From Spirochaetia bacterium (lineage in GTDB: Bacteria > Spirochaetota > Spirochaetia > DSM-2461): a stretch of DNA of 64,000 nucleotides. The translations under genes and the position numbers were made by a program. The stretch is from NCBI GenBank assembly GCA_963668315.1, contig OY764216.1:1376001-1440000 (forward strand). The letters run 5' to 3'. Below, piece by piece: positions 26,560-36,000 of the stretch (position 1 is its first letter; the number at the start of each line of letters is the position of its first letter). Below the pieces are notes generated by a model. The model saw only the letters and a list, made by a program, of their open reading frames with translations. It did no database searches and was not told where the DNA came from.

Positions 26560-26787
26560 GGGGGCCTCCTCTGGTCGCATCGGCTGGGCGGCAGCATCAT
26601 CTTCCGGCCTGCCTGCCGTCATTTTCCGTAGAAACAGGGTAGCCGGATGGGCTTTGATGGTCAAGGGCGAAAGGGAGAGGGGAGAAATATCCGTCAAAAA
26701 CATAGATGGGTCTACGCAGTTTTCCCGATAGGTATTATACTGGGGATAATCGCAGGATGTATTCCCGGGAAAAGAGAGGAGGAACCA

Positions 26788-27204
26788 TTGGGAGAAACGA
26801 TACGCTTCGGGGTATCCATGGACAGCGACCTGGTTGAACTTCTTGACAGACTGACCCTGGACCAGGGGCATGAAAACCGTTCTGAAACAATTCGGTCTCT
26901 GGTGAGGAATGAGCTGGTGGAGACCGGTTCTCAGGATCCCGACAGGGAAGTCATAGGCACGGTTACTCTTCTTTACCACTACGGAACCAGGCTGCCCCGG
27001 GTCCTTGTGAAGGATTATCCGTCGGTAAAAATTTCTGCCAATATCCAGCTTCACGAGGATCATGAAATCTGTGTGAAAGTCATGGTGGTAAAAGGGAAGG
27101 GGGGCGAGGTCCGCGACTGGGCTCGGAAGCTTCTTTCCGGAAAGAAGATCATCGGGGAACTTTCCATCAGCGCCACAGAGGAACTGTACAGGGAACTGTT
27201 GTAG
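26788..27204 (+). CDS. NikR-like ribbon-helix-helix metalloregulator
   Basis: RFGVSMDSDL..NRSETIRSLVR RHH; VIGTVTLLY..C..VMVVKG ACT-like domain; GGAGG RBS + TTG start. Confidence 0.85.
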   Translation: MGETIRFGVSMDSDLVELLDRLTLDQGHENRSETIRSLVRNELVETGSQDPDREVIGTVTLLYHYGTRLPRVLVKDYPSVKISANIQLHEDHEICVKVMVVKGKGGEVRDWARKLLSGKKIIGELSISATEELYRELL

Positions 27205-27227
27205 GGCATGTGACAAGAGCCACCGTA

Positions 27228-27292
27228 TTGACCTTAGAAATAAAAGGTTTTATTCTATTTTGATGTGACACGAAAAAATTAAAACGTGTCAC
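27228..27292 (+). promoter_or_regulatory. Sigma70 promoter plus 28-bp NikR-type operator
   Basis: TTGACC-17-TATTCT, then perfect inverted repeat GTGACACG-N12-CGTGTCAC (27265-27292). Confidence 0.8.
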
Positions 27293-27329
27293 CCTTTTTG
27301 ACAGGTCGATTATAACAGGAGACATCAGA

Positions 27330-28475
27330 TTGAATACGTATCATGACAGAAGGGCTTTCCGCCCGAGAGCTGCGGCTCTGATCTTAGGTTTTATGATCCT
27401 CATCAGTTCCCAGGGCCTTTTTTCCATGGCCCGGGAAGAGGCATTCGAGACAGACTCATCCTTCACTGTCACCGACATGAGGGGAAGGGAAATCACGGTT
27501 CCGGGAGAAATCAGTCGCGTCATAGCCCTGGATGCCGGTGCTCTGAGGCTGATCAGCTACCTCGACGCCACAGATAAGGTCATCGCCGTGGAAGATGAGG
27601 GTCACGGACGGGAAATCTCTGATTACGGATTTTTCTCCCTGGCAACCTACCGTATCGCCTTTCCCGAACTGCGTGAACTTCCCAGTATCGGCAATAAGGA
27701 GAACCATGAGGGAATCATTGCGGCAGCGCCTGATCTCATTATCACTTCCACCGTGGATCCGGGGCAGCTGGATCAGCTTCAGAACGTTCTGGGGATTCCC
27801 GTTTTTGCCGTTAATGTCGATGTGGAACTCTTTGATAGGGAACTCTTCAATTTTCAGCTGACAAAACTCGGACAGATTCTGGGACGGCAGGATAGGGCAA
27901 AGGAGCTAATCGACGGAATCGATGCTGTTCTTGCCGATCTGGAAGCCCGTGCCTCCCTAGCGTCCGTGGCGAAACGGGCTTATGCCGGAGGAATGATGTT
28001 CTACGGCCCCGCCGATATTCTCAGGACGACGGGAGATTATCTTCCCTTTGATTTCAGCGGCGCCGAAAATGTCATGCCCACCAACCCTGTGGGAAACCTT
28101 CAGCCCTATATGACATCCGTGGAGGACCTGATCGCGGCCGCTCCCGACTATGTGTTTATCGATGGGGCGAACATGAACCTTTCCCGCTCCGGGTTTGAAA
28201 CGAACCGCAAAGTGCTGGAAGAGCAGGTTCCCGCCTTTGAGAATCAGCAGGTCTACTCCACTTTCGTATACAAATATTACGGGACAAACTGGGAAAATCA
28301 GCTTATCAATGCCTTTTTTGTCGGAAAAGTGCTCTATCCCGATTTGTATGGCGATATTGTCGTCGAAGACAAGGCCGAGGAAATCTGGCAGCTCTTTTTC
28401 GGAAGATCCCTGACCTATGATCAGGTGGTTCAGGCTCAGAAGGGCGGACCTGAAAAGGTTGACTGGTTTAACTGA
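27330..28475 (+). CDS. ABC transporter substrate-binding protein (metal-chelate/cobalamin, class III)
   Basis: TVTDMRGREITVP..RVIAL, LPSIG, PDLII, PDYVF; AGGAG RBS + TTG. Confidence 0.88.
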   Translation: MNTYHDRRAFRPRAAALILGFMILISSQGLFSMAREEAFETDSSFTVTDMRGREITVPGEISRVIALDAGALRLISYLDATDKVIAVEDEGHGREISDYGFFSLATYRIAFPELRELPSIGNKENHEGIIAAAPDLIITSTVDPGQLDQLQNVLGIPVFAVNVDVELFDRELFNFQLTKLGQILGRQDRAKELIDGIDAVLADLEARASLASVAKRAYAGGMMFYGPADILRTTGDYLPFDFSGAENVMPTNPVGNLQPYMTSVEDLIAAAPDYVFIDGANMNLSRSGFETNRKVLEEQVPAFENQQVYSTFVYKYYGTNWENQLINAFFVGKVLYPDLYGDIVVEDKAEEIWQLFFGRSLTYDQVVQAQKGGPEKVDWFN

Positions 28476-28477
28476 TT

Positions 28478-29539
28478 ATGAATCATGGTGCTGTCGATCC
28501 TCTTTTCCATCTATACCGCTTAGAGAGAAGAAGCCGGGGAATATTCCTGGCCATAGCAGGGGGCGTTCTTCTGCTGCTGGTCCTTTTTTCCCTGTCGGCA
28601 GGCACCATAAGGATTCCTTTCAAGGATGTGCTCTCCTACCTTTTCAGGCTGGATGCCGCCGGACAGGGCCGTATCATATGGGACGTCAGGATGCCTCGGG
28701 TTCTGGCCGCACTCCTTGTCGGCGCGGGGCTGTCCCTGTCCGGAACTGTAATGCAGTCCGTACTGCGCAATCCCCTGGCCTCTCCCTATACCCTGGGACT
28801 CTCCAGCGCCGCCGCCTTCGGTGCATCCTTTGCCATCGTCTTTTTCGGCGCGGGAACGGGCACTTCCTCCACGATCATCATCAGCAGTTCCTTCACCGTG
28901 GCCGCTTCGGCTTTTCTCTTCTGCTCCCTGTCCACGCTGGCCATTCTCCTGCTTACCGTACTGACAAAGATATCCGCCGAAAGCATGGTCCTGGCCGGTA
29001 TTGCCATCGGGTCGCTCTTTTCCGCCGGCCTTACCCTTATGCAGTATCTGGCCGACAGCGTGCAGCTGGCCAGCATCGTCTCCTGGACGTTCGGGGATCT
29101 GGGCCGGGCCAACTGGCAATTCCTGGCCATAACTGCGGTAGTCCTGATTCCCGTCTGCCTTCTTTTCTACTATTTCCGCTGGGATTTCAATGCCCTGGAC
29201 ACAGGTGAGGACGCGGCCCGGGGGCTGGGCGTGAAGACGGGAGCCCTGCGCATCGGAGGAATGGCCGCCGCCTCTCTTATCTCGGCTGTGATCGTCTCCT
29301 TCTTCGGGACCATCGCATTCATCGGACTTCTGGGCCCCCATATCGCCCGAAGGATTCTGGGCGCCGATCACCGCTTCCTCCTGATCTCCTCCCCCCTCAT
29401 CGGAGCCCTGATACTTCTGGCCGCCGATACGGCCGCCCGGACGGTTCTTACCCCTATGGTCCTGCCCGTGGGAATTCTGACCTCCCTCTGCGGTGGCCCT
29501 CTGTTCATCTATCTTCTTGTCGCAAGGAGGAGGGGATGA
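28478..29539 (+). CDS. FecCD/BtuC family permease
   Basis: RMPRVL, LRNPLASPYTLG, G.IAFIGLLGPHIAR, LPVG. Confidence 0.93.
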   Translation: MNHGAVDPLFHLYRLERRSRGIFLAIAGGVLLLLVLFSLSAGTIRIPFKDVLSYLFRLDAAGQGRIIWDVRMPRVLAALLVGAGLSLSGTVMQSVLRNPLASPYTLGLSSAAAFGASFAIVFFGAGTGTSSTIIISSSFTVAASAFLFCSLSTLAILLLTVLTKISAESMVLAGIAIGSLFSAGLTLMQYLADSVQLASIVSWTFGDLGRANWQFLAITAVVLIPVCLLFYYFRWDFNALDTGEDAARGLGVKTGALRIGGMAAASLISAVIVSFFGTIAFIGLLGPHIARRILGADHRFLLISSPLIGALILLAADTAARTVLTPMVLPVGILTSLCGGPLFIYLLVARRRG

Positions 29540-30288
29540 TTCTTTCTGTTCAGGGACTGCAATTCCAGTATAAAAGTCATCCCGTCATCAAGGAGGCTTC
29601 CTTCTGTGTGAAGGAAGGGGAGATCCTTACCATTCTGGGGCCGAACGGCGCCGGAAAAACAACTCTCCTCAAGTGCCTGAACCGGATTCTGATTCCCCGG
29701 GGCGGATCGGTTCTTATAGACGGAACGGATATCCACTCCCTGAGGCCGGTCCAGATCGCCCGCAGAATAGGCTGGGTTCCCCAGCAGGGCGAAAAAACCC
29801 GTATGAAAGTTTACGATCTGATTCTTCTGGGAAGAAAACCCTATTTCCGCTGGGCTCCGGGGAAAAGGGATCACCTGCTGGTGGAAGAAGCCATCAAGCT
29901 GATGGGTATTGAATCTCTGGCCATGCGTTACGCCGATGAAATAAGCGGAGGGGAGTTTCAGCTGGTGCAGATTGTCAGGGCCATGGCTCAGGCGCCCCGG
30001 GTCATTCTTTTTGATGAACCGACCAGCAGCCTGGATATCAGCAACCAGCATCGTCTAATGTCCCGTATCAGTCCCCTCATTCACTCAAGCCCCATGTCGG
30101 CGGTAATGACCCTTCACGATATCAATCTGGCCCTGCGTTATTCCGATAAATTTCTCCTCCTCCGGGACGGTATCGTCTATGCGGCGGGGGGCCGGGAGAT
30201 TATCACTCCGCAAAATATCCTCAAGGTATACGACATGGATGTCCTGGTGGAAGAAGCCGGCGGATATCCCGTCGTCATTCCTCTCTGA
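29536..30288 (+). CDS. ABC transporter ATP-binding protein (FecE/BtuD-like)
   Basis: GPNGAGKT, ISGGE, LFDEPT, LHDINLA. Confidence 0.93.
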   Translation: MILSVQGLQFQYKSHPVIKEASFCVKEGEILTILGPNGAGKTTLLKCLNRILIPRGGSVLIDGTDIHSLRPVQIARRIGWVPQQGEKTRMKVYDLILLGRKPYFRWAPGKRDHLLVEEAIKLMGIESLAMRYADEISGGEFQLVQIVRAMAQAPRVILFDEPTSSLDISNQHRLMSRISPLIHSSPMSAVMTLHDINLALRYSDKFLLLRDGIVYAAGGREIITPQNILKVYDMDVLVEEAGGYPVVIPL

Positions 30289-30305
30289 CCGGTCGGATTT
30301 CTCCC

Positions 30306-30860
30306 ATGAGAGTTACCCGGGCCATCGAAGAACAGCGGCAGCTTTATCCCCTGTCGACCTTGGCTGATATCTATAAAAGCTTTTTTCAGGATGAGTTCGG
30401 CCCGGGACACCTTCTTGCCGATCGGCAGAGAGCCCTGGAATATTACAATGGGGAGCTCGCCGATATGAGAAGCCGGAGCCGTTATAAGATCGAACCCTGC
30501 GGAGCGGGAGAGCATTTCTGTCGTCTTCACTTGGATCTTGTTCTTGACGGATTGATCAGCCGGGAAGACTATTTTGAGGCATTCCTGGCCGGGGCGGAGG
30601 GATTTTCTCTTCCCGACGGGGAGGGTTGGAAAAACAAATGGCTGTCAATTCTCCGTTCTCCCGGGAATTGGCAGGGTACCCTTGATCATTTTGAGGAAGA
30701 TGCCCATGGAATCCTATCTCGACTGGACGGGGGCGAATACGCCATGAATCACAGCGGCCGCTACAGGCAGGCCTATGACCCTCATTACCGTATCTTTTCC
30801 ATCCGGCATGCCGATGCCTTGATGGCTTCCCTATCCCCTAAAATCCGTCCTTTCTCATAA
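30306..30860 (+). CDS. Hypothetical protein, last gene of the ABC operon
   Basis: DIYKSFFQDEFGPGH and HSGRYRQAYDPHYRI segments; 17 nt after the ATPase gene. Confidence 0.75.
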   Translation: MRVTRAIEEQRQLYPLSTLADIYKSFFQDEFGPGHLLADRQRALEYYNGELADMRSRSRYKIEPCGAGEHFCRLHLDLVLDGLISREDYFEAFLAGAEGFSLPDGEGWKNKWLSILRSPGNWQGTLDHFEEDAHGILSRLDGGEYAMNHSGRYRQAYDPHYRIFSIRHADALMASLSPKIRPFS

Positions 30861-30908: not shown

Positions 30909-30937
30909 GTAACACTTTTCCTCCGCCTCACTGTTTA
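30909..30937 (+). promoter_or_regulatory. Putative ECF-sigma promoter
   Basis: GTAAC-N17-CTGTTTA (AAC -35 / GTT-type -10) upstream of the ECF operon. Confidence 0.4.
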
Positions 30938-30969: not shown

Positions 30970-31602
30970 ATGAAAAAGATAACCATTGTTTTAGTTTTAG
31001 TTATGATTACCGCCAGCCTTTTCGCCCAGGTGAAATTCCGCATGAACGGAGCCTGCGACTGGCATGCAGAAGAGGAAAAATCAGAGATGGGCGGAATCCG
31101 TCTGGAACTTGTGGGGCAGGAACTCGGCTTCGGCGTTGAAGTCATGGGTAATTCCAGCTGCGAAGATGAGCCGGTGGAGGGGGAGACCTACTGGGGCGAA
31201 TGGCAGGGAGAAGTCTTTGTCAATTATCACTTTTTCGGGAATAATTCTTTCCTGGATCCCTATCTGCAGGCCGGATACGGCTGTGCTGGCAAGGACTACT
31301 GGACCGTAGATGAGGGTTCGCAGGAGTTGAATATCTCCCTTTATCCCTCCTTCTCCGCCGGAGTCAACATGGTTTTCAAGGGCGGTCTCATTCTGGGCAT
31401 TCGCAACAGCTATCGTCCGGATAACCGGTATGTGCCCGGTTCAGATCTGCCCGTTTATGATTTGTCAAAGAATCAGTTTACCCTTAATATCGGCCACCAG
31501 TTCGGCGGAAGGGATAAAAGAGAGAGAGCAAGAGATGAGCGTTACGGATGCTGGAAGTGGTGCTGGTGCGAAGACGGCGACTGTGACAGGGATGACGATT
31601 AG
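30970..31602 (+). CDS. Exported beta-barrel-like protein with Cys/Trp/Asp-rich C-terminal tail
   Basis: Signal peptide ..ASLFA; amphipathic strands (LDPYLQAGYG, FTLNIGHQF); tail GCWKWCWCEDGDCDRDDD. Confidence 0.7.
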   Translation: MKKITIVLVLVMITASLFAQVKFRMNGACDWHAEEEKSEMGGIRLELVGQELGFGVEVMGNSSCEDEPVEGETYWGEWQGEVFVNYHFFGNNSFLDPYLQAGYGCAGKDYWTVDEGSQELNISLYPSFSAGVNMVFKGGLILGIRNSYRPDNRYVPGSDLPVYDLSKNQFTLNIGHQFGGRDKRERARDERYGCWKWCWCEDGDCDRDDD

Positions 31603-31616
31603 TCAAGGAGGACGTT

Positions 31617-32108
31617 CTGCCCGTTGACGTAGAAGCATTATATACCAAGTACGGACCTATGGTCCTCAGAAGATGCCGGCAGATGCTGGGAAACGAGGAC
31701 CAGGCCCTGGACGCCATGCAGGATGTCTTTGTCAAAGTGATAAACAAGAAGGACAGCCTCAAGGCGACCTATCCGTCCAGTCTCCTCTATACCATGGCTA
31801 CCAATCACTGCCTGAATATTCTGAGCCGGGAGAAGAGAACCTCCTGCGATAACGAGATTCTTGAGATGATCGTGTCCTTGGACAGGGTGGAGGAGAAGGC
31901 CCTGGACCGAATGTTTCTGGACCAGCTTTTTTCCGGTCAGAAAGCGTCCACCCGGACCATAGCGGTTCTTCATTATATGGATGGACTGACCCTGGAAGAG
32001 ACATCCCAGCTGAGCGGACTTTCCGTCTCCGGGGTGAGGAAGCGGTTGAGGAAGCTGAGAGAAGCGGGATTGGAAATGGAAGGATATACGGCGGAGAGAA
32101 GCAAATGA
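31617..32108 (+). CDS. ECF RNA polymerase sigma factor
   Basis: Region 2 (LYTKYGPMVLRRC..ALDAMQDVF) and region 4 (GLTLEETSQLSGLSVSGVRKRL); probable CTG start 5 nt after AAGGAGG. Confidence 0.9.
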   Translation: MPVDVEALYTKYGPMVLRRCRQMLGNEDQALDAMQDVFVKVINKKDSLKATYPSSLLYTMATNHCLNILSREKRTSCDNEILEMIVSLDRVEEKALDRMFLDQLFSGQKASTRTIAVLHYMDGLTLEETSQLSGLSVSGVRKRLRKLREAGLEMEGYTAERSK

Positions 32109-32899
32109 AAGATAATAAAAAAATAATGACAGAACTGTTCCGCCTGGGGGAGCTGCCCGAAGGCTGGGAAGATAAAGTTGACAGAGAAACCATTGACGGT
32201 GATGTGAGCGAGCTTCTCTCTTCCGACCGTGATATTCTGGATAGGTACAGGCCTTCCCGGATGGCCGCCGAGATTGAGGAGAAGGCACGGAGCGCCCGGG
32301 CCGGCAGGAAACGGAATCGTGTCAGGACGGCGGTTGCCTATACGGCGGCGGCCGCGGCCATGCTGGTCATGGGGCTGATTCTTCCCGGAATCATGACCGA
32401 ATCTACCGAATTTGACCCTGCCGGAACGACCCGGATCAAAGGTCAGTCGGAAGCCGGACTTACCGTCTACCGCAATACGGGACTTTCCACGGAAGTTCTC
32501 GATGAGAACAGTACGGCCCGGGAAGGGGATCTCATTCAGCTGGGCTATTCCGTCTTTACCGAAATGCCCTACGGTATCATCCTTTCCATAGACGGCCGGG
32601 GAATTGTCACACGCCATCTGGCGCCGGAAGGCCAGATCTCCGAAAAACTTCTCCCCGGAGGAGAACATCTTCTGGATTTTGCCTACGAGCTTGATGATGC
32701 CCCACGGTTCGAAACATTCTATCTGCTTGTCTCCGACAGGCCCTTTCCCGTGGATCCTGTGATCGATCTTCTTTCCAGGGAAGCCCGGGGAGAGGGAAAT
32801 ATCATCGATATTCCGGAGATCATAGGAAAAAGCTCTCTCGATTCCCGCGGAATTGGAAAAATGGTTCAATTCGCGGTATCAATACCCAAAGAGGATTAG
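32105..32899 (+). CDS. Putative membrane anti-sigma factor
   Basis: ATGA-coupled to the ECF gene; ~75-aa cytoplasmic N-terminus, single TM, TRIKG, periplasmic beta domain (GDLIQLGY..ILSIDGRG..YELDDAP). Confidence 0.78.
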   Translation: MKDNKKIMTELFRLGELPEGWEDKVDRETIDGDVSELLSSDRDILDRYRPSRMAAEIEEKARSARAGRKRNRVRTAVAYTAAAAAMLVMGLILPGIMTESTEFDPAGTTRIKGQSEAGLTVYRNTGLSTEVLDENSTAREGDLIQLGYSVFTEMPYGIILSIDGRGIVTRHLAPEGQISEKLLPGGEHLLDFAYELDDAPRFETFYLLVSDRPFPVDPVIDLLSREARGEGNIIDIPEIIGKSSLDSRGIGKMVQFAVSIPKED

Positions 32900-32903
32900 T
32901 ACA

Positions 32904-34994
32904 GTGAAGAAAAATACTCTCTTTATGATATTTTTTACCCTATCCGTTCTTTTCAGTGCCCGATGGGGGAGCGCTCTGAATGCAGAAGCCATGGAAGTCC
33001 GCCGTTTCGGCCTGTTTATCGGAGCCAACAACGGAGGGGATGAGCGCCAGACTCTGCTTTATGCCGATGATGACGCCCGGGATATGATGCTGACCATGGA
33101 GCAGATAGGGGGCATCGATCCTTCGGACAGCCTCCTGCTTCTGAACCCCACCGCCGGGAAAATCCGGGAGGCCCTGAAAATCATCTCCCTTCAAATCGAA
33201 GATGTTAACCCCCTGGTCAGACGGACGGAAATCATGTTCTACTACTCGGGACACTCCAACGGTCAGGGGCTTCTTCTGGCCGATGAAGATCTCTCCTACA
33301 AGGATATCAGAGACTCCCTGGACACGACCGGCGCGGATGTGGTCATCGCCGTTCTCGATTCCTGCTCATCCGGCGCCTTTACCAGGGCCAAGGGCGGCGA
33401 GAGACGCTCCCCCTTCCTGATCGACGAATCGTCCAGCATGGAGGGACATGCCTTTCTCACTTCCAGTTCCGAATCTGAACTGTCCCAGGAATCGGATCTT
33501 ATCGAGGGATCTTTCTTTACCCATTACCTTATCTCCGGTCTGCGGGGAGCGGCTGACAATACGGGAGACGGGCGTGTTTCGCTTAATGAGATTTATGAGC
33601 ATACCTTCCGGGAAACCCTTTCTTCCACGGAATCCACCATCGGCGGCCCTCAGCATGCTACCTATGAGATTCAGCTGACCGGTACGGGCGATTTGGTTTT
33701 GACCGATCTGACGATTCCCACCTCTGCGCTTCTGATCTCCGGGGAACTGGCAGGGCGCTTTTCCGTACGCTCCGGAGACAAACTGATAGCGGAGTTTTCC
33801 AAATACCGGGAGGATACCTTTAAAATGGCCCTTCCCGCCGGGGAATATACCATTAATATGGCCGATGGGGACGATGTCCGTTATGCCGATATCGAACTGA
33901 GTCGCAACGGACAGTTCTTTCTTACCGAGAAGGATTTTTCCAGCCGGCGGCTTGTCTGGACCCGCTTCCGAGGGGAGAGGAACTCCGATGAGGAGGTGGA
34001 AATCCCCTTTACCCTTTCACTCTTTCCCGGCATAAATTATCCCACTCTTCCCGATAACTCCGTTGTCATGCTGCAGGCGGGATTGAGTGCCTATGCCCCC
34101 CGGTTTGAAGGGGTGCAGGCCAGCTATCTGTTCAATATCACCCAGGATGACAGTGAGGGAGTTCAGGTTTCCCAGAATTTCAATATTGCCCGAAGTAATT
34201 TTCAAGGCATTCAGGGAGCGGGTATATTCAACATAGCCGGGGGAAACCTCCAGGGAGTACAGGGCGCCGGACTTTTCAATATCGCCGGAGATGAGCTGAG
34301 CGGACTTCAGGCGGCGGGACTTTTTAATATGGCCGGGCGCCCCTCTTCGGGAGTACAGCTCTCCGGCCTATTCAATATAGCCGGAGAGCTGGAGGGTTTT
34401 CAGGCGGCGGGTTTGTTCAATTCGACCGATTATCTGGACGGTATGCAGATCTCCCTGGTAAACAAGGCGGGAACGGTCGACGGGTTTCAGCTCGGGCTGG
34501 TCAATATCGCCCGTGAAATGGACGGCTTGGCCGTGGGGCTTATCAATATTTCCCGGAACGGAATCGTCGATCTGGGTGCCTGGTATGACAGCGGGGACGG
34601 TAAAATGTATACCTTCTTTCAGTCGGGAAGTCCCTATTTCTACACGCTCTATTTCATCGGCAATGAATTTCCCGACCATTCGGAAAGGGAGACTGTCTGG
34701 GGGGCCCATGCCGGATGCCGCCTGGGACTGGGCCCCCTGGAGATCGATCTGGACGGAGGATTCAGAAGCGCCTGGCAGGATGTCATGGATTCGGGAGCCG
34801 ATACTCCCTATCTTCTTCCCTCCGGCCGGGCTGTGATCGCGTTCAAAGGTCTGGGACTCTTCTGCGGATTCAGTGCGGTCATGTCTTTCCCGGGAAGTTA
34901 TGAATCCACCCTCTACGACGGGGACAGCTTCGCTCTCTTCGGGAATGAGGATTACCATATCTATCCGGACTTTATCATCGGCTTAAGGATCTGA
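32904..34994 (+). CDS. Exported caspase-family (peptidase C14) protein with C-terminal surface repeats and barrel-like domain
   Basis: Signal peptide; RFGLFIGAN; YYSGH (His) and VLDSC (Cys) dyad; GSFFTHYLISGLRGAAD; C-terminus IIGLRI. Confidence 0.88.
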   Translation: MKKNTLFMIFFTLSVLFSARWGSALNAEAMEVRRFGLFIGANNGGDERQTLLYADDDARDMMLTMEQIGGIDPSDSLLLLNPTAGKIREALKIISLQIEDVNPLVRRTEIMFYYSGHSNGQGLLLADEDLSYKDIRDSLDTTGADVVIAVLDSCSSGAFTRAKGGERRSPFLIDESSSMEGHAFLTSSSESELSQESDLIEGSFFTHYLISGLRGAADNTGDGRVSLNEIYEHTFRETLSSTESTIGGPQHATYEIQLTGTGDLVLTDLTIPTSALLISGELAGRFSVRSGDKLIAEFSKYREDTFKMALPAGEYTINMADGDDVRYADIELSRNGQFFLTEKDFSSRRLVWTRFRGERNSDEEVEIPFTLSLFPGINYPTLPDNSVVMLQAGLSAYAPRFEGVQASYLFNITQDDSEGVQVSQNFNIARSNFQGIQGAGIFNIAGGNLQGVQGAGLFNIAGDELSGLQAAGLFNMAGRPSSGVQLSGLFNIAGELEGFQAAGLFNSTDYLDGMQISLVNKAGTVDGFQLGLVNIAREMDGLAVGLINISRNGIVDLGAWYDSGDGKMYTFFQSGSPYFYTLYFIGNEFPDHSERETVWGAHAGCRLGLGPLEIDLDGGFRSAWQDVMDSGADTPYLLPSGRAVIAFKGLGLFCGFSAVMSFPGSYESTLYDGDSFALFGNEDYHIYPDFIIGLRI
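34107..34560 (+). repeat. Ten tandem 14-16 aa GxQxxGxFNxA repeats (LA_2272-like beta-solenoid)
   Basis: QGIQGAGIFNIAGGNL / QGVQGAGLFNIAGDEL / SGLQAAGLFNMAGRPS etc. Confidence 0.85.
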
Positions 34995-35503: not shown

Positions 35504-35529
35504 AGGAGAATATTGCGGAATATTCTCCT
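35504..35529. terminator. Hairpin between convergent genes
   Basis: AGGAGAATATT-GCGG-AATATTCTCCT. Confidence 0.55.
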
Positions 35530-35821
35530 AATCCTTATTTTTCTTTTTGTTCCGTGACAGGGAGAGGCTTCCGAATCCTCCGAGAATACCCATATAAAAA
35601 CCAAGATCGTACCAGAAGCCCGTATTATGGACCTCGTAGATATTGAGATGCTCGCGGAATATACTGAATATCAGAGATATCGGGGCCACCCATCCGTGCC
35701 AGATTCCCCAGAGCATGTTGGCCGGAGCCTCTCCTGTTGCTTTTCCATCGCCGGGAAGGCAGGATGCCAGAAGAAACATCATGGATAGCATCAGGATGAT
35801 GTATTTTGTTTTCACTTTCAT
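35528..35821 (-). CDS. Small membrane lipoprotein, hypothetical
   Basis: Lipobox LAS-C; GIWHGW..YEVHNTGFWYDLGF. Confidence 0.8.
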   Translation of the reverse strand: MKVKTKYIILMLSMMFLLASCLPGDGKATGEAPANMLWGIWHGWVAPISLIFSIFREHLNIYEVHNTGFWYDLGFYMGILGGFGSLSLSRNKKKNKD

Positions 35822-36000
35822 ATCGATCTCCCTTTTTAACAGTATACTCCTTTAGAACAGTTCGGCAAGGAAAAACTGTCACAGTTCCCAGGAAGAACTT
35901 CTGCAACCGGGAGATTCCCCATAGCCTCCCTTTATCCGGACGTGCTTCGCTATGGAAAAAGTACGGGAAATATATAAAATTAAGGTATGAGGAGATGATC

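Follow-up and report, generated by a model that had tools for sequence, protein, structure and literature searches.

To our knowledge, relatives of caspases are widespread in bacteria, and few of them have a known natural substrate or trigger. In TonB-dependent cell-surface signalling, as in FecA/FecR/FecI, an outer-membrane protein, an inner-membrane anti-sigma factor, and a sigma factor of the extracytoplasmic function (ECF) type are encoded in one locus. The cutting of anti-sigma factors by caspase-fold proteins has precedents in Csx29/Csx30 (PMC10028731) and in a proposal for DdvA (PMC11506125); RseP dependence was shown for truncated DdvA (PMC11506125, PMC6061681), and one group of Csx30 C-terminal domains belongs to DUF4384 (PMC10028731; bioRxiv 10.1101/2022.08.17.504292). 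Caspase-fold proteins are also found with sigma factors in EACC2-caspase loci, which carry ECF sigma factors in a different arrangement (PMC8195603), and PCaspase/PCi link a caspase-fold protease to a sigma factor in a defence system of different architecture (bioRxiv 10.1101/2023.06.23.546230). Furthermore, Asplund-Samuelsson et al. (2012, PMC3501461) reported that a sigma-70 gene is common to four metacaspase operons of Myxococcus xanthus and that Anaeromyxobacter, Haliangium, Sorangium, Ralstonia, and Fibrobacter show the arrangement too; the accessible part of that survey names no anti-sigma factor, barrel anchor, cleavage motif, promoter, mechanism, or experiment. No published mechanism for a trio of sigma factor, anti-sigma factor, and caspase was found in a search that reached few subscription papers. 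The present study concerns a stretch of 64,000 nucleotides from a Spirochaetia bacterium (GenBank assembly GCA_963668315.1, contig OY764216.1, positions 1,376,001 to 1,440,000 of the forward strand; hereafter the window), in which an ECF sigma factor, a single-pass transmembrane (TM) protein of anti-sigma type, and an exported C14 caspase-family protease are encoded in succession. With moderate confidence, the trio is interpreted as an envelope switch in which the protease, predicted to be anchored in the outer membrane, would cut the anti-sigma factor at an R-x-K-G motif that both proteins share and so free the sigma factor. The operons of the 2012 survey very probably belong to the same family; that survey and the Myxococcota loci described below also show that the myxobacterial neighbourhoods of ECF sigma factor and caspase, mentioned in an initial annotation of the window, are real.

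Four co-oriented open reading frames (ORFs) lie on the + strand at 30970..34994 (Table 1). An ORF and translation check agreed with the initial annotation on their tight packing, on the ATGA by which the stop codon of the sigma gene overlaps the start of the TM gene, on the single TM segment of the product, and on the catalytic dyad of the protease, the codons of His117 and Cys154 beginning at 33252 and 33363; the GTG start of the protease gene follows the stop codon of the TM gene by 4 nt. All four genes had been taken together as one operon, and a gene-neighbourhood search upholds the co-conservation of three of them. The TM protein is present in 21 of 41 related genomes (the window's own genome counted), and at 20 spirochaete loci from these genomes the sigma gene lies upstream in every case and the barrel-like gene upstream in 8; the caspase gene follows downstream in 19, the contig of the remaining locus coming to an end. 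A GTDB scan confirmed at least 511 of 602 candidates, from which the best 80 loci, mutually related and in part from the same genomes as the 20, were kept; they span Spirochaetota, Acidobacteriota, Fibrobacterota, Myxococcota, Latescibacterota, and others. The sigma gene stands immediately upstream in 78 of these 80, the other two beginning at a contig edge, and the caspase gene immediately downstream in 76, the remaining four being L098, where the contig ends, and L030, L050, and L065, which lack it (L and G numbers are our labels for loci and genomes). The barrel-like gene is within the operon in 5/80, so that a four-gene core is rejected: the core comprises three genes, and the barrel-like gene is an accessory regulon member outside it. 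Since it recurs across phyla, the gene order is no accident.

In the genomes of L050 and L065, a caspase of the same subfamily is encoded at another place, where it stands alone in one case and adjoins a second anti-sigma gene with the same promoter in the other; the query used found none in the L030 genome (2 Mb, completeness unstated) or the L098 genome. Considered with L149, L150, L147, and L148, the L050 and L065 loci show the subfamily split in two myxobacteria into sigma plus anti-sigma genes, anti-sigma plus caspase genes with the same promoter, and a lone caspase gene. Split or truncated ORFs for the sigma factor, the anti-sigma factor, or the caspase, due to frameshift or assembly error, occur at L034, L098, L069, L077, and L099. 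The closest relatives are Spirochaetaceae. The family is large, the anti-sigma profile matching 2,288 clusters at 50% identity (E<=1e-30). One Myxococcus genome has ten or more candidate loci, and within the short flanks fetched, 89 of 108 Myxococcota caspase loci have an anti-sigma gene and 77 have both anti-sigma and sigma genes upstream (sample: 41 Myxococcota genomes and further loci, for which 60 of the unfetched matches were taken).

The assignment of the first core protein to the ECF sigma factors, already made in the initial annotation, is confirmed by Sigma70_r2 (42.4 bits, over the Pfam cut-off) and TIGR02937 (over the NCBIfam cut-off); Sigma70_r4_2 is just under its cut-off (24 bits, E 3e-5), and the Pfam scan gave no region 3 match. 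The protein thus has regions 2 and 4 only, and its length falls within the approximately 160–200 aa expected of group 4. Its CTG start at 31617 follows AGGAGG (window 31606-31619, +) and lies 14 codons ahead of the first ATG. L021-L024 share this start, and GTG or TTG takes its place in many further homologues; such non-ATG starts may damp translation of the sigma factor.

The TM protein is likely an anti-sigma factor that holds the sigma factor inactive. In keeping with the type proposed in the initial annotation, its N-terminal profile aligns to the zinc anti-sigma domains of myxobacterial paralogues (hhalign prob 95.8, E 6.5e-9), which themselves match zf-HC2 below the cut-off. The HxxxCxxC zinc motif occurs in 0/71 members of the window's anti-sigma subfamily vs 47/89 Myxococcota paralogues. 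A model from 71 sequences (mean predicted local distance difference test score, pLDDT, 86.8) contains helices at 2-14, 27-47, and 50-92, one TM segment, and an immunoglobulin (Ig)-like sandwich, and the linker of residues 97-112 is disordered (pLDDT<50). DUF4384 (PF14326) is matched at E<=0.01 by 16 of the 71 relatives (best 2.6e-6) and not by the window's own protein; one homologue is named 'ActD-like protein' by NCBI. A PDB search with the anti-sigma profile returned nothing meaningful, and fold searches, which bore on the parts beyond the N-terminal domain, returned only generic Ig-like sandwiches (best Z 8.5), with no Foldseek match at E<=0.001. The surface motifs of the DUF4384-type domain are strongly conserved in the family, far beyond the needs of a simple steric cap.

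The third core protein matches Peptidase_C14 (PF00656) with 30.3 bits against a cut-off of 21.4, and its LA_2272 repeat scores above the threshold of NCBIfam. The protein carries a signal peptide, and an AlphaFold2 model from 39 sequences (pLDDT 85) predicts that residues 32-268 form a caspase domain, residues 275-340 an Ig-like domain, residues 365-549 an LA_2272 beta-helix, and residues 554-695 an 8-stranded barrel, which bears out the repeat solenoid and barrel-like C-terminus of the initial annotation. By VIA-align, the caspase domain resembles metacaspase 4 (6w8r; Z 20.6, rmsd 2.8, 206 aligned) and other caspases, the beta-helix resembles 3p4g (Z 16.5, rmsd 2.7, 191 aligned), and the barrel resembles the OprF N-terminal barrel (4rlc; Z 14.5, rmsd 2.2, 112 aligned), as well as PagL and OmpW. 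A PDB search with the protease sequence gave nothing at E<=0.1, and a search with its profile found metacaspases; the EACC1-associated caspase family NF047832 stayed below its cut-off (59.5 vs 140 bits). In an alignment of 74 rows (73 loci and the window, three truncated or frameshifted loci having been dropped), H117, C154, D57, and D152 are each invariant, and the intact dyad in 74/74 indicates that catalysis is under selection. D57 and D152 align with the acidic Asp residues at the S1 position of metacaspases, which we take to confer specificity for basic residues, and the protease is predicted to have an acidic S1 pocket for such residues. Orthocaspases prefer a basic P1 residue (PMC8283722).

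The predicted topology depends on the barrel. The LA_2272 helix is absent from 23 of 63 complete protease homologues, and 9 of 18 repeat-less homologues match OMP_b-brl below the cut-off. By its usual topology, an 8-stranded barrel places everything N-terminal to it in the periplasm; autotransporter barrels have 12 strands, and 8-stranded barrels are not known to pass a passenger. Because of this topology, the caspase, Ig, and beta-helix parts probably lie in the periplasm, anchored by the outer-membrane barrel. The initial annotation had given the protease a surface-sensing domain of its own, and this part of its proposal is not supported: being N-terminal to the barrel and missing from so many homologues, the repeat is more likely a spacer. 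A stand-alone LA_2272-type repeat and barrel protein without a caspase is encoded elsewhere in the window's genome (G000 C1 1,136,749-1,137,129, -), adjoining a gene that by eye resembles DUF4097-type envelope proteins. Furthermore, a cluster of three unrelated exported C14 proteins without R-x-K-G is located at G000 C1 ~5,435,000-5,478,500; the proteins of this region appear unlike those of the rest of the genome, and foreign DNA or contamination is possible.

A link between protease and anti-sigma factor is suggested by the motif that they share. In the anti-sigma linker, at a median of 17 residues after the TM segment, K112 is conserved in 81/81 rows, G113 in 80/81, and R110 in 73/81, and the neighbouring linker columns are unconserved; R-x-K-G stands at that place in only 4 of 126 single-pass ORFs of the window's genome, any K/R-G in 44. 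In the protease, the same motif is found 6-10 residues after Cys154 (R161 73/74, K163 74/74, G164 73/74), and a related T-x-x-R-G follows the Ig domain (R356 72/74, G357 71/74). Both are in the sole internal low-confidence segments of the model, residues 162-174 and 351-361 (pLDDT<50). The loop motif is probably a self-processing site, and that the anti-sigma factor keeps a copy of it suggests that the anti-sigma factor is a substrate. With P1 assigned by a fixed rule, both partners have the same residue, K or R, in 80 among 87 pairs from myxobacteria; after three of these assignments had been corrected by hand (one was dropped and two were changed), the figure was 82 of 86, and the outcome of the independent-pairs test, given below, stayed the same. 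One large clade has R-G in both partners, the window's clade has K-G in both, and L218, L178/L109, and L189 switch jointly; on the tree, 4 of 5 caspase K/R changes are accompanied by a matching anti-sigma change.

Several observations weigh against cleavage of the anti-sigma factor by the protease. The K/R agreement rests mostly on a single deep split, and a sign test on independent pairs, with a tree built without the loop, was not significant (p 0.5-1, 3-6 usable pairs). L159, L183, L186, and L190 truly disagree, and three further mismatches look like errors of the rule. The anti-sigma factor of L030 retains the motif, although the query found no caspase in its 2-Mb genome, of unstated completeness. 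The post-Cys R-G is also present in caspase L143, which has no nearby sigma gene, so that the loop motif is family-wide, as its probable role in self-processing would also be. The 80 loci are the best of at least 511 and are related to one another. Finally, an inhibitor or docking peptide would account for the shared motif as well as a substrate would.

The last point leads to the strongest alternative, in which the linker is a pseudo-substrate or docking peptide that binds the protease and holds it in check, or is shielded by it; a change in this contact would signal in the manner of TonB-type systems, and another protease would make the site-1 cut. Inhibitory loops copy the protease's own sequences, as the anti-sigma motif copies the protease's own loop, and the conservation of the DUF4384 surface motifs also favours docking. 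A dedicated caspase inhibitor, PCi, is encoded beside a sigma gene in Haliangium (bioRxiv 10.1101/2023.06.23.546230), and TonB-dependent transducers are reported to protect their anti-sigma factors (PMC11637429). We nevertheless consider this alternative unlikely: the selection on catalysis evident from the dyad speaks against it, and a cut at the observed distance from the membrane would expose the TM segment to RseP.

The operon is likely driven by its own sigma factor, and self-regulation is predicted, through the motif GT[AG]ACA-N17-TGTT (GTRACA-N17-TGTT), which was derived by de novo word counting upstream of homologous sigma genes. Counted as GT[AG]AC-N18-TGT, it occurs at 67 of the 73 loci whose upstream DNA is long enough, compared with 18 of 73 for the reverse strand, these being the loci that yielded the motif, and the operon site of the window has the highest position weight matrix (PWM) score of its entire genome. 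Across the genome, the pattern shows no enrichment (20 sites, against 33-39 after shuffling), so that only sites repeated at orthologues are trusted. Among 22 sites in five relatives, the motif precedes the operon in five relatives, a TonB-receptor-like gene in four, a small lipoprotein gene in two (and in the window), and an LPP20 lipoprotein gene in one (and in the window's own genome); one-off targets include PspA. The TonB-receptor-like gene, with a Plug domain, follows the motif at L112, L118, L119, and L120, and no match to it was found in the window's genome. In other loci, the motif heads small barrels and caspase-less Ig and barrel or repeat and barrel genes adjoining the module; those with their own promoter copy right after the protease gene are L027:9546-10571, L052:9472-10470, L063:9528-10553, and L035:10240-11349. 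These caspase-less genes are possible decoys or co-receptors.

That the protease lies within the predicted transcript of its sigma factor, and that outer-membrane proteins and lipoproteins make up the remaining predicted targets, would also be expected if the protease were an output of the sigma factor only, processing or degrading other envelope proteins, with the anti-sigma factor under the control of a general protease such as DegS/HtrA or Prc. PCaspase is broad in specificity (bioRxiv 10.1101/2023.06.23.546230). This possibility is regarded as quite unlikely, as it leaves unexplained both the copy of the protease motif in the anti-sigma factor and the clade-wise K/R agreement, and in myxobacteria there is one caspase per sigma/anti-sigma pair, with both partners upstream at the 77 of 108 caspase loci mentioned above. 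A third possibility is improbable, namely that the module, like DdvS/DdvA, belongs to the anti-phage or conflict systems and turns on defence or death genes. A caspase-fold protease with a sigma factor is typical of CRISPR/CBASS-linked systems, and an outer-membrane barrel could sense phage adsorption; the neighbours, by contrast, are not defence genes. At 43 loci, a crude rule that takes the longest ORF yielded 172 neighbours. Of 86 compared with PADLOC, 2 match at 1e-20, namely an AbiEii and a probable activator of sigma-54 type, and Pfam assigns mostly housekeeping roles to the other 86, so that a defence-island context is rejected; the predicted targets are envelope genes, and in the window the module sits between an ABC transporter and fatty-acid genes. 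Lastly, it is most improbable that the protease works at the cell surface in the manner of an autotransporter, with a caspase domain that lies outside and never meets the anti-sigma factor, and this reading is rejected. Its signal peptide, beta-helix, and C-terminal barrel do resemble those of autotransporters, the NCBIfam label is that of a surface repeat, and the structural matches of the helix include adhesins; the modelled barrel, however, has 8 strands of the OprF-N/PagL/OmpW kind instead of 12, and the helix is missing from 23 of 63 complete homologues.

A dedicated site-1 protease remains the best interpretation of the caspase-family protein, and one that we hold to be reasonably probable; we infer its proteolytic steps and its signal as follows. 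From homology and gene order, the anti-sigma factor would hold the sigma factor at the inner membrane. The protease is predicted to be exported and inserted through its barrel, with the caspase, Ig, and beta-helix parts in the periplasm. A cue at the outer membrane, for which clustering or mis-assembly of barrels or a loop ligand is our best guess, might then bring caspase domains together. The protease would process its own chain at K163|G and at R356|G, where cleavage would free the catalytic part from the outer membrane, and would subsequently cut the anti-sigma factor at K112|G, which would remove the DUF4384 domain. By analogy with RseA, RseP and cytoplasmic proteases would complete the release; an RseP-type M50 homologue is encoded in the window's genome (PF02163 over the cut-off, G000 C1:4687059-4688333). 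The sigma factor would finally transcribe its own operon together with small barrels, a TonB-dependent receptor, and lipoproteins, ahead of which the motif is found. Tentatively, the module may represent an undescribed form of trans-envelope signalling, in which an outer-membrane receptor-protease clusters, releases itself, crosses the periplasm, and cleaves the anti-sigma factor at a copy of its own activation motif; the variable barrels might receive different inputs, the motif might insulate paralogous channels, and the Ig and barrel genes might serve as decoys or co-receptors.

Table 1. Positions of the module and of associated features in the window (position 1 is the first letter of the window)
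Feature	Position	Strand	Remarks
Predicted operon promoter, GTAACA-N17-TGTT	30909..30935	+	61 nt ahead of the first start codon
Accessory exported small beta-barrel-like protein, 210 aa	30970..31602	+	Signal-like N-terminus; OMP_b-brl E 0.047
ECF sigma factor, 163 aa, CTG start	31617..32108	+	Sigma70_r2, TIGR02937 over cut-off
Predicted anti-sigma factor, 264 aa	32105..32899	+	Anti-sigma domain (ASD)-type N-terminus ~1-70, TM ~75-93, linker 97-112, Ig-like 118-262
T-R-I-K-G in anti-sigma linker, predicted site-1 cut after K112	32429..32443	+	
Exported C14 caspase-family protease, 696 aa	32904..34994	+	Pfam, NCBIfam, model
Catalytic His117 and Cys154	33252..33365	+	74/74 aligned rows
T-R-A-K-G in protease loop after catalytic Cys, predicted self-processing site	33381..33395	+	
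T-R-F-R-G between Ig domain and outer-membrane part, predicted second self-cut	33960..33974	+	
97-aa membrane lipoprotein, predicted regulon member	35528..35821	-	Preceded at 61 nt by the promoter motif
Second promoter motif, GTGACA-N17-TGTT, ahead of lipoprotein gene	35856..35882	-	Third-best PWM site in genome

Outside the core, the first gene of the operon had been described as encoding a barrel-like exported protein; export agrees with its N-terminus, and the barrel is matched weakly in Pfam (Table 1). Its C-terminal tail (window 31500-31602, +), beyond the last predicted strand, is charged, acidic, and rich in Cys and Trp, and is kept in the two closest homologues only; it is possibly a metal-binding or disulfide tail. 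The 97-aa lipoprotein gene lies outside the range of the initial annotation. Its orthologues, located elsewhere in G002 and G003, also carry the promoter motif; the protein has no Pfam family, and an Atlas search gave unnamed lipoprotein clusters only. Upstream of the operon (window 26647-30860, +), the translations indicate a NikR-like regulator, an iron/cobalamin-type ABC transporter, and a 184-aa ORF, which are not conserved together with the module.

The module supplies, for a bacterial caspase relative, a candidate substrate, a predicted cut site at residue level, two predicted self-processing sites, and a promoter for use as reporter. If the proposed switch is true, the site-1 proteases would gain a further class, and a signal could travel from the outer membrane to transcription in a manner that does not involve TonB; if the receptor-protease reading is true as well, the module would parallel, in bacteria, the initiator caspases that are coupled to receptors, with transcriptional signalling and not death as its role. 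The many myxobacterial paralogues offer a tractable model.

With regard to described systems, the module is comparable to RpoE-RseA-DegS-RseP in its ECF sigma factor, single-pass anti-sigma factor, predicted periplasmic site-1 cut followed by RseP, and envelope regulon (PMC7826278, PMC11506125). DegS, by contrast, is an inner-membrane PDZ serine protease, whereas the candidate here is an operon-encoded clan CD cysteine protease with a predicted anchor in the outer membrane. DdvS/DdvA of Myxococcus xanthus likewise combines an ECF sigma factor with a TM anti-sigma factor and a periplasmic caspase-fold domain proposed for the site-1 cut (PMC11506125, PMC6061681); however, TPR-CHAT is part of the DdvA chain itself, and DdvA has a CBASS/CRISPR island under its control, whereas here a separate C14 protease with a barrel accompanies a 264-aa anti-sigma factor that has a DUF4384-type Ig-like domain and no zinc motif, amid non-defence neighbours. 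The module is thus not of the DdvA type. In the Type III-E Craspase system of Csx29, Csx30, and CASP-sigma, a caspase-fold protease also cuts an anti-sigma factor and relieves an ECF-like sigma factor (PMC10028731; bioRxiv 10.1101/2022.08.17.504292), although that system is cytoplasmic, of the CHAT family, and triggered by RNA, whereas parts of the present module are exported and no CRISPR link is found.

ECF25 is a comparable ECF group, with an anti-sigma factor at +1 that is mostly single-pass and has a zinc domain and/or DUF4384 (Casas-Pastor et al., 2021, PMC7826278), and with members in Spirochaetes, Fibrobacteres, Deltaproteobacteria, and Acidobacteria (PMC7826278). Its promoter is GGAAC/GTC (subgroups s1 and s2; PMC7826278) vs GTRAC/GTGTT here, and the accessible text of that classification contains no mention of 'Caspase' and mentions DUF4384 for ECF25 only. 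Like FecA/FecR/FecI, the window's locus spans the envelope with an outer-membrane protein, an anti-sigma factor, and an ECF sigma factor; its outer-membrane protein is, however, a small 8-stranded barrel with its own protease and with no plug or TonB signalling domain, and its anti-sigma factor is not FecR-like, no FecR match being found by Pfam in 71 anti-sigma factors, so that the locus is not of the TonB-type transducer class. Overall, the module resembles known protease-gated ECF switches and differs from them by its unusual, predicted outer-membrane caspase.

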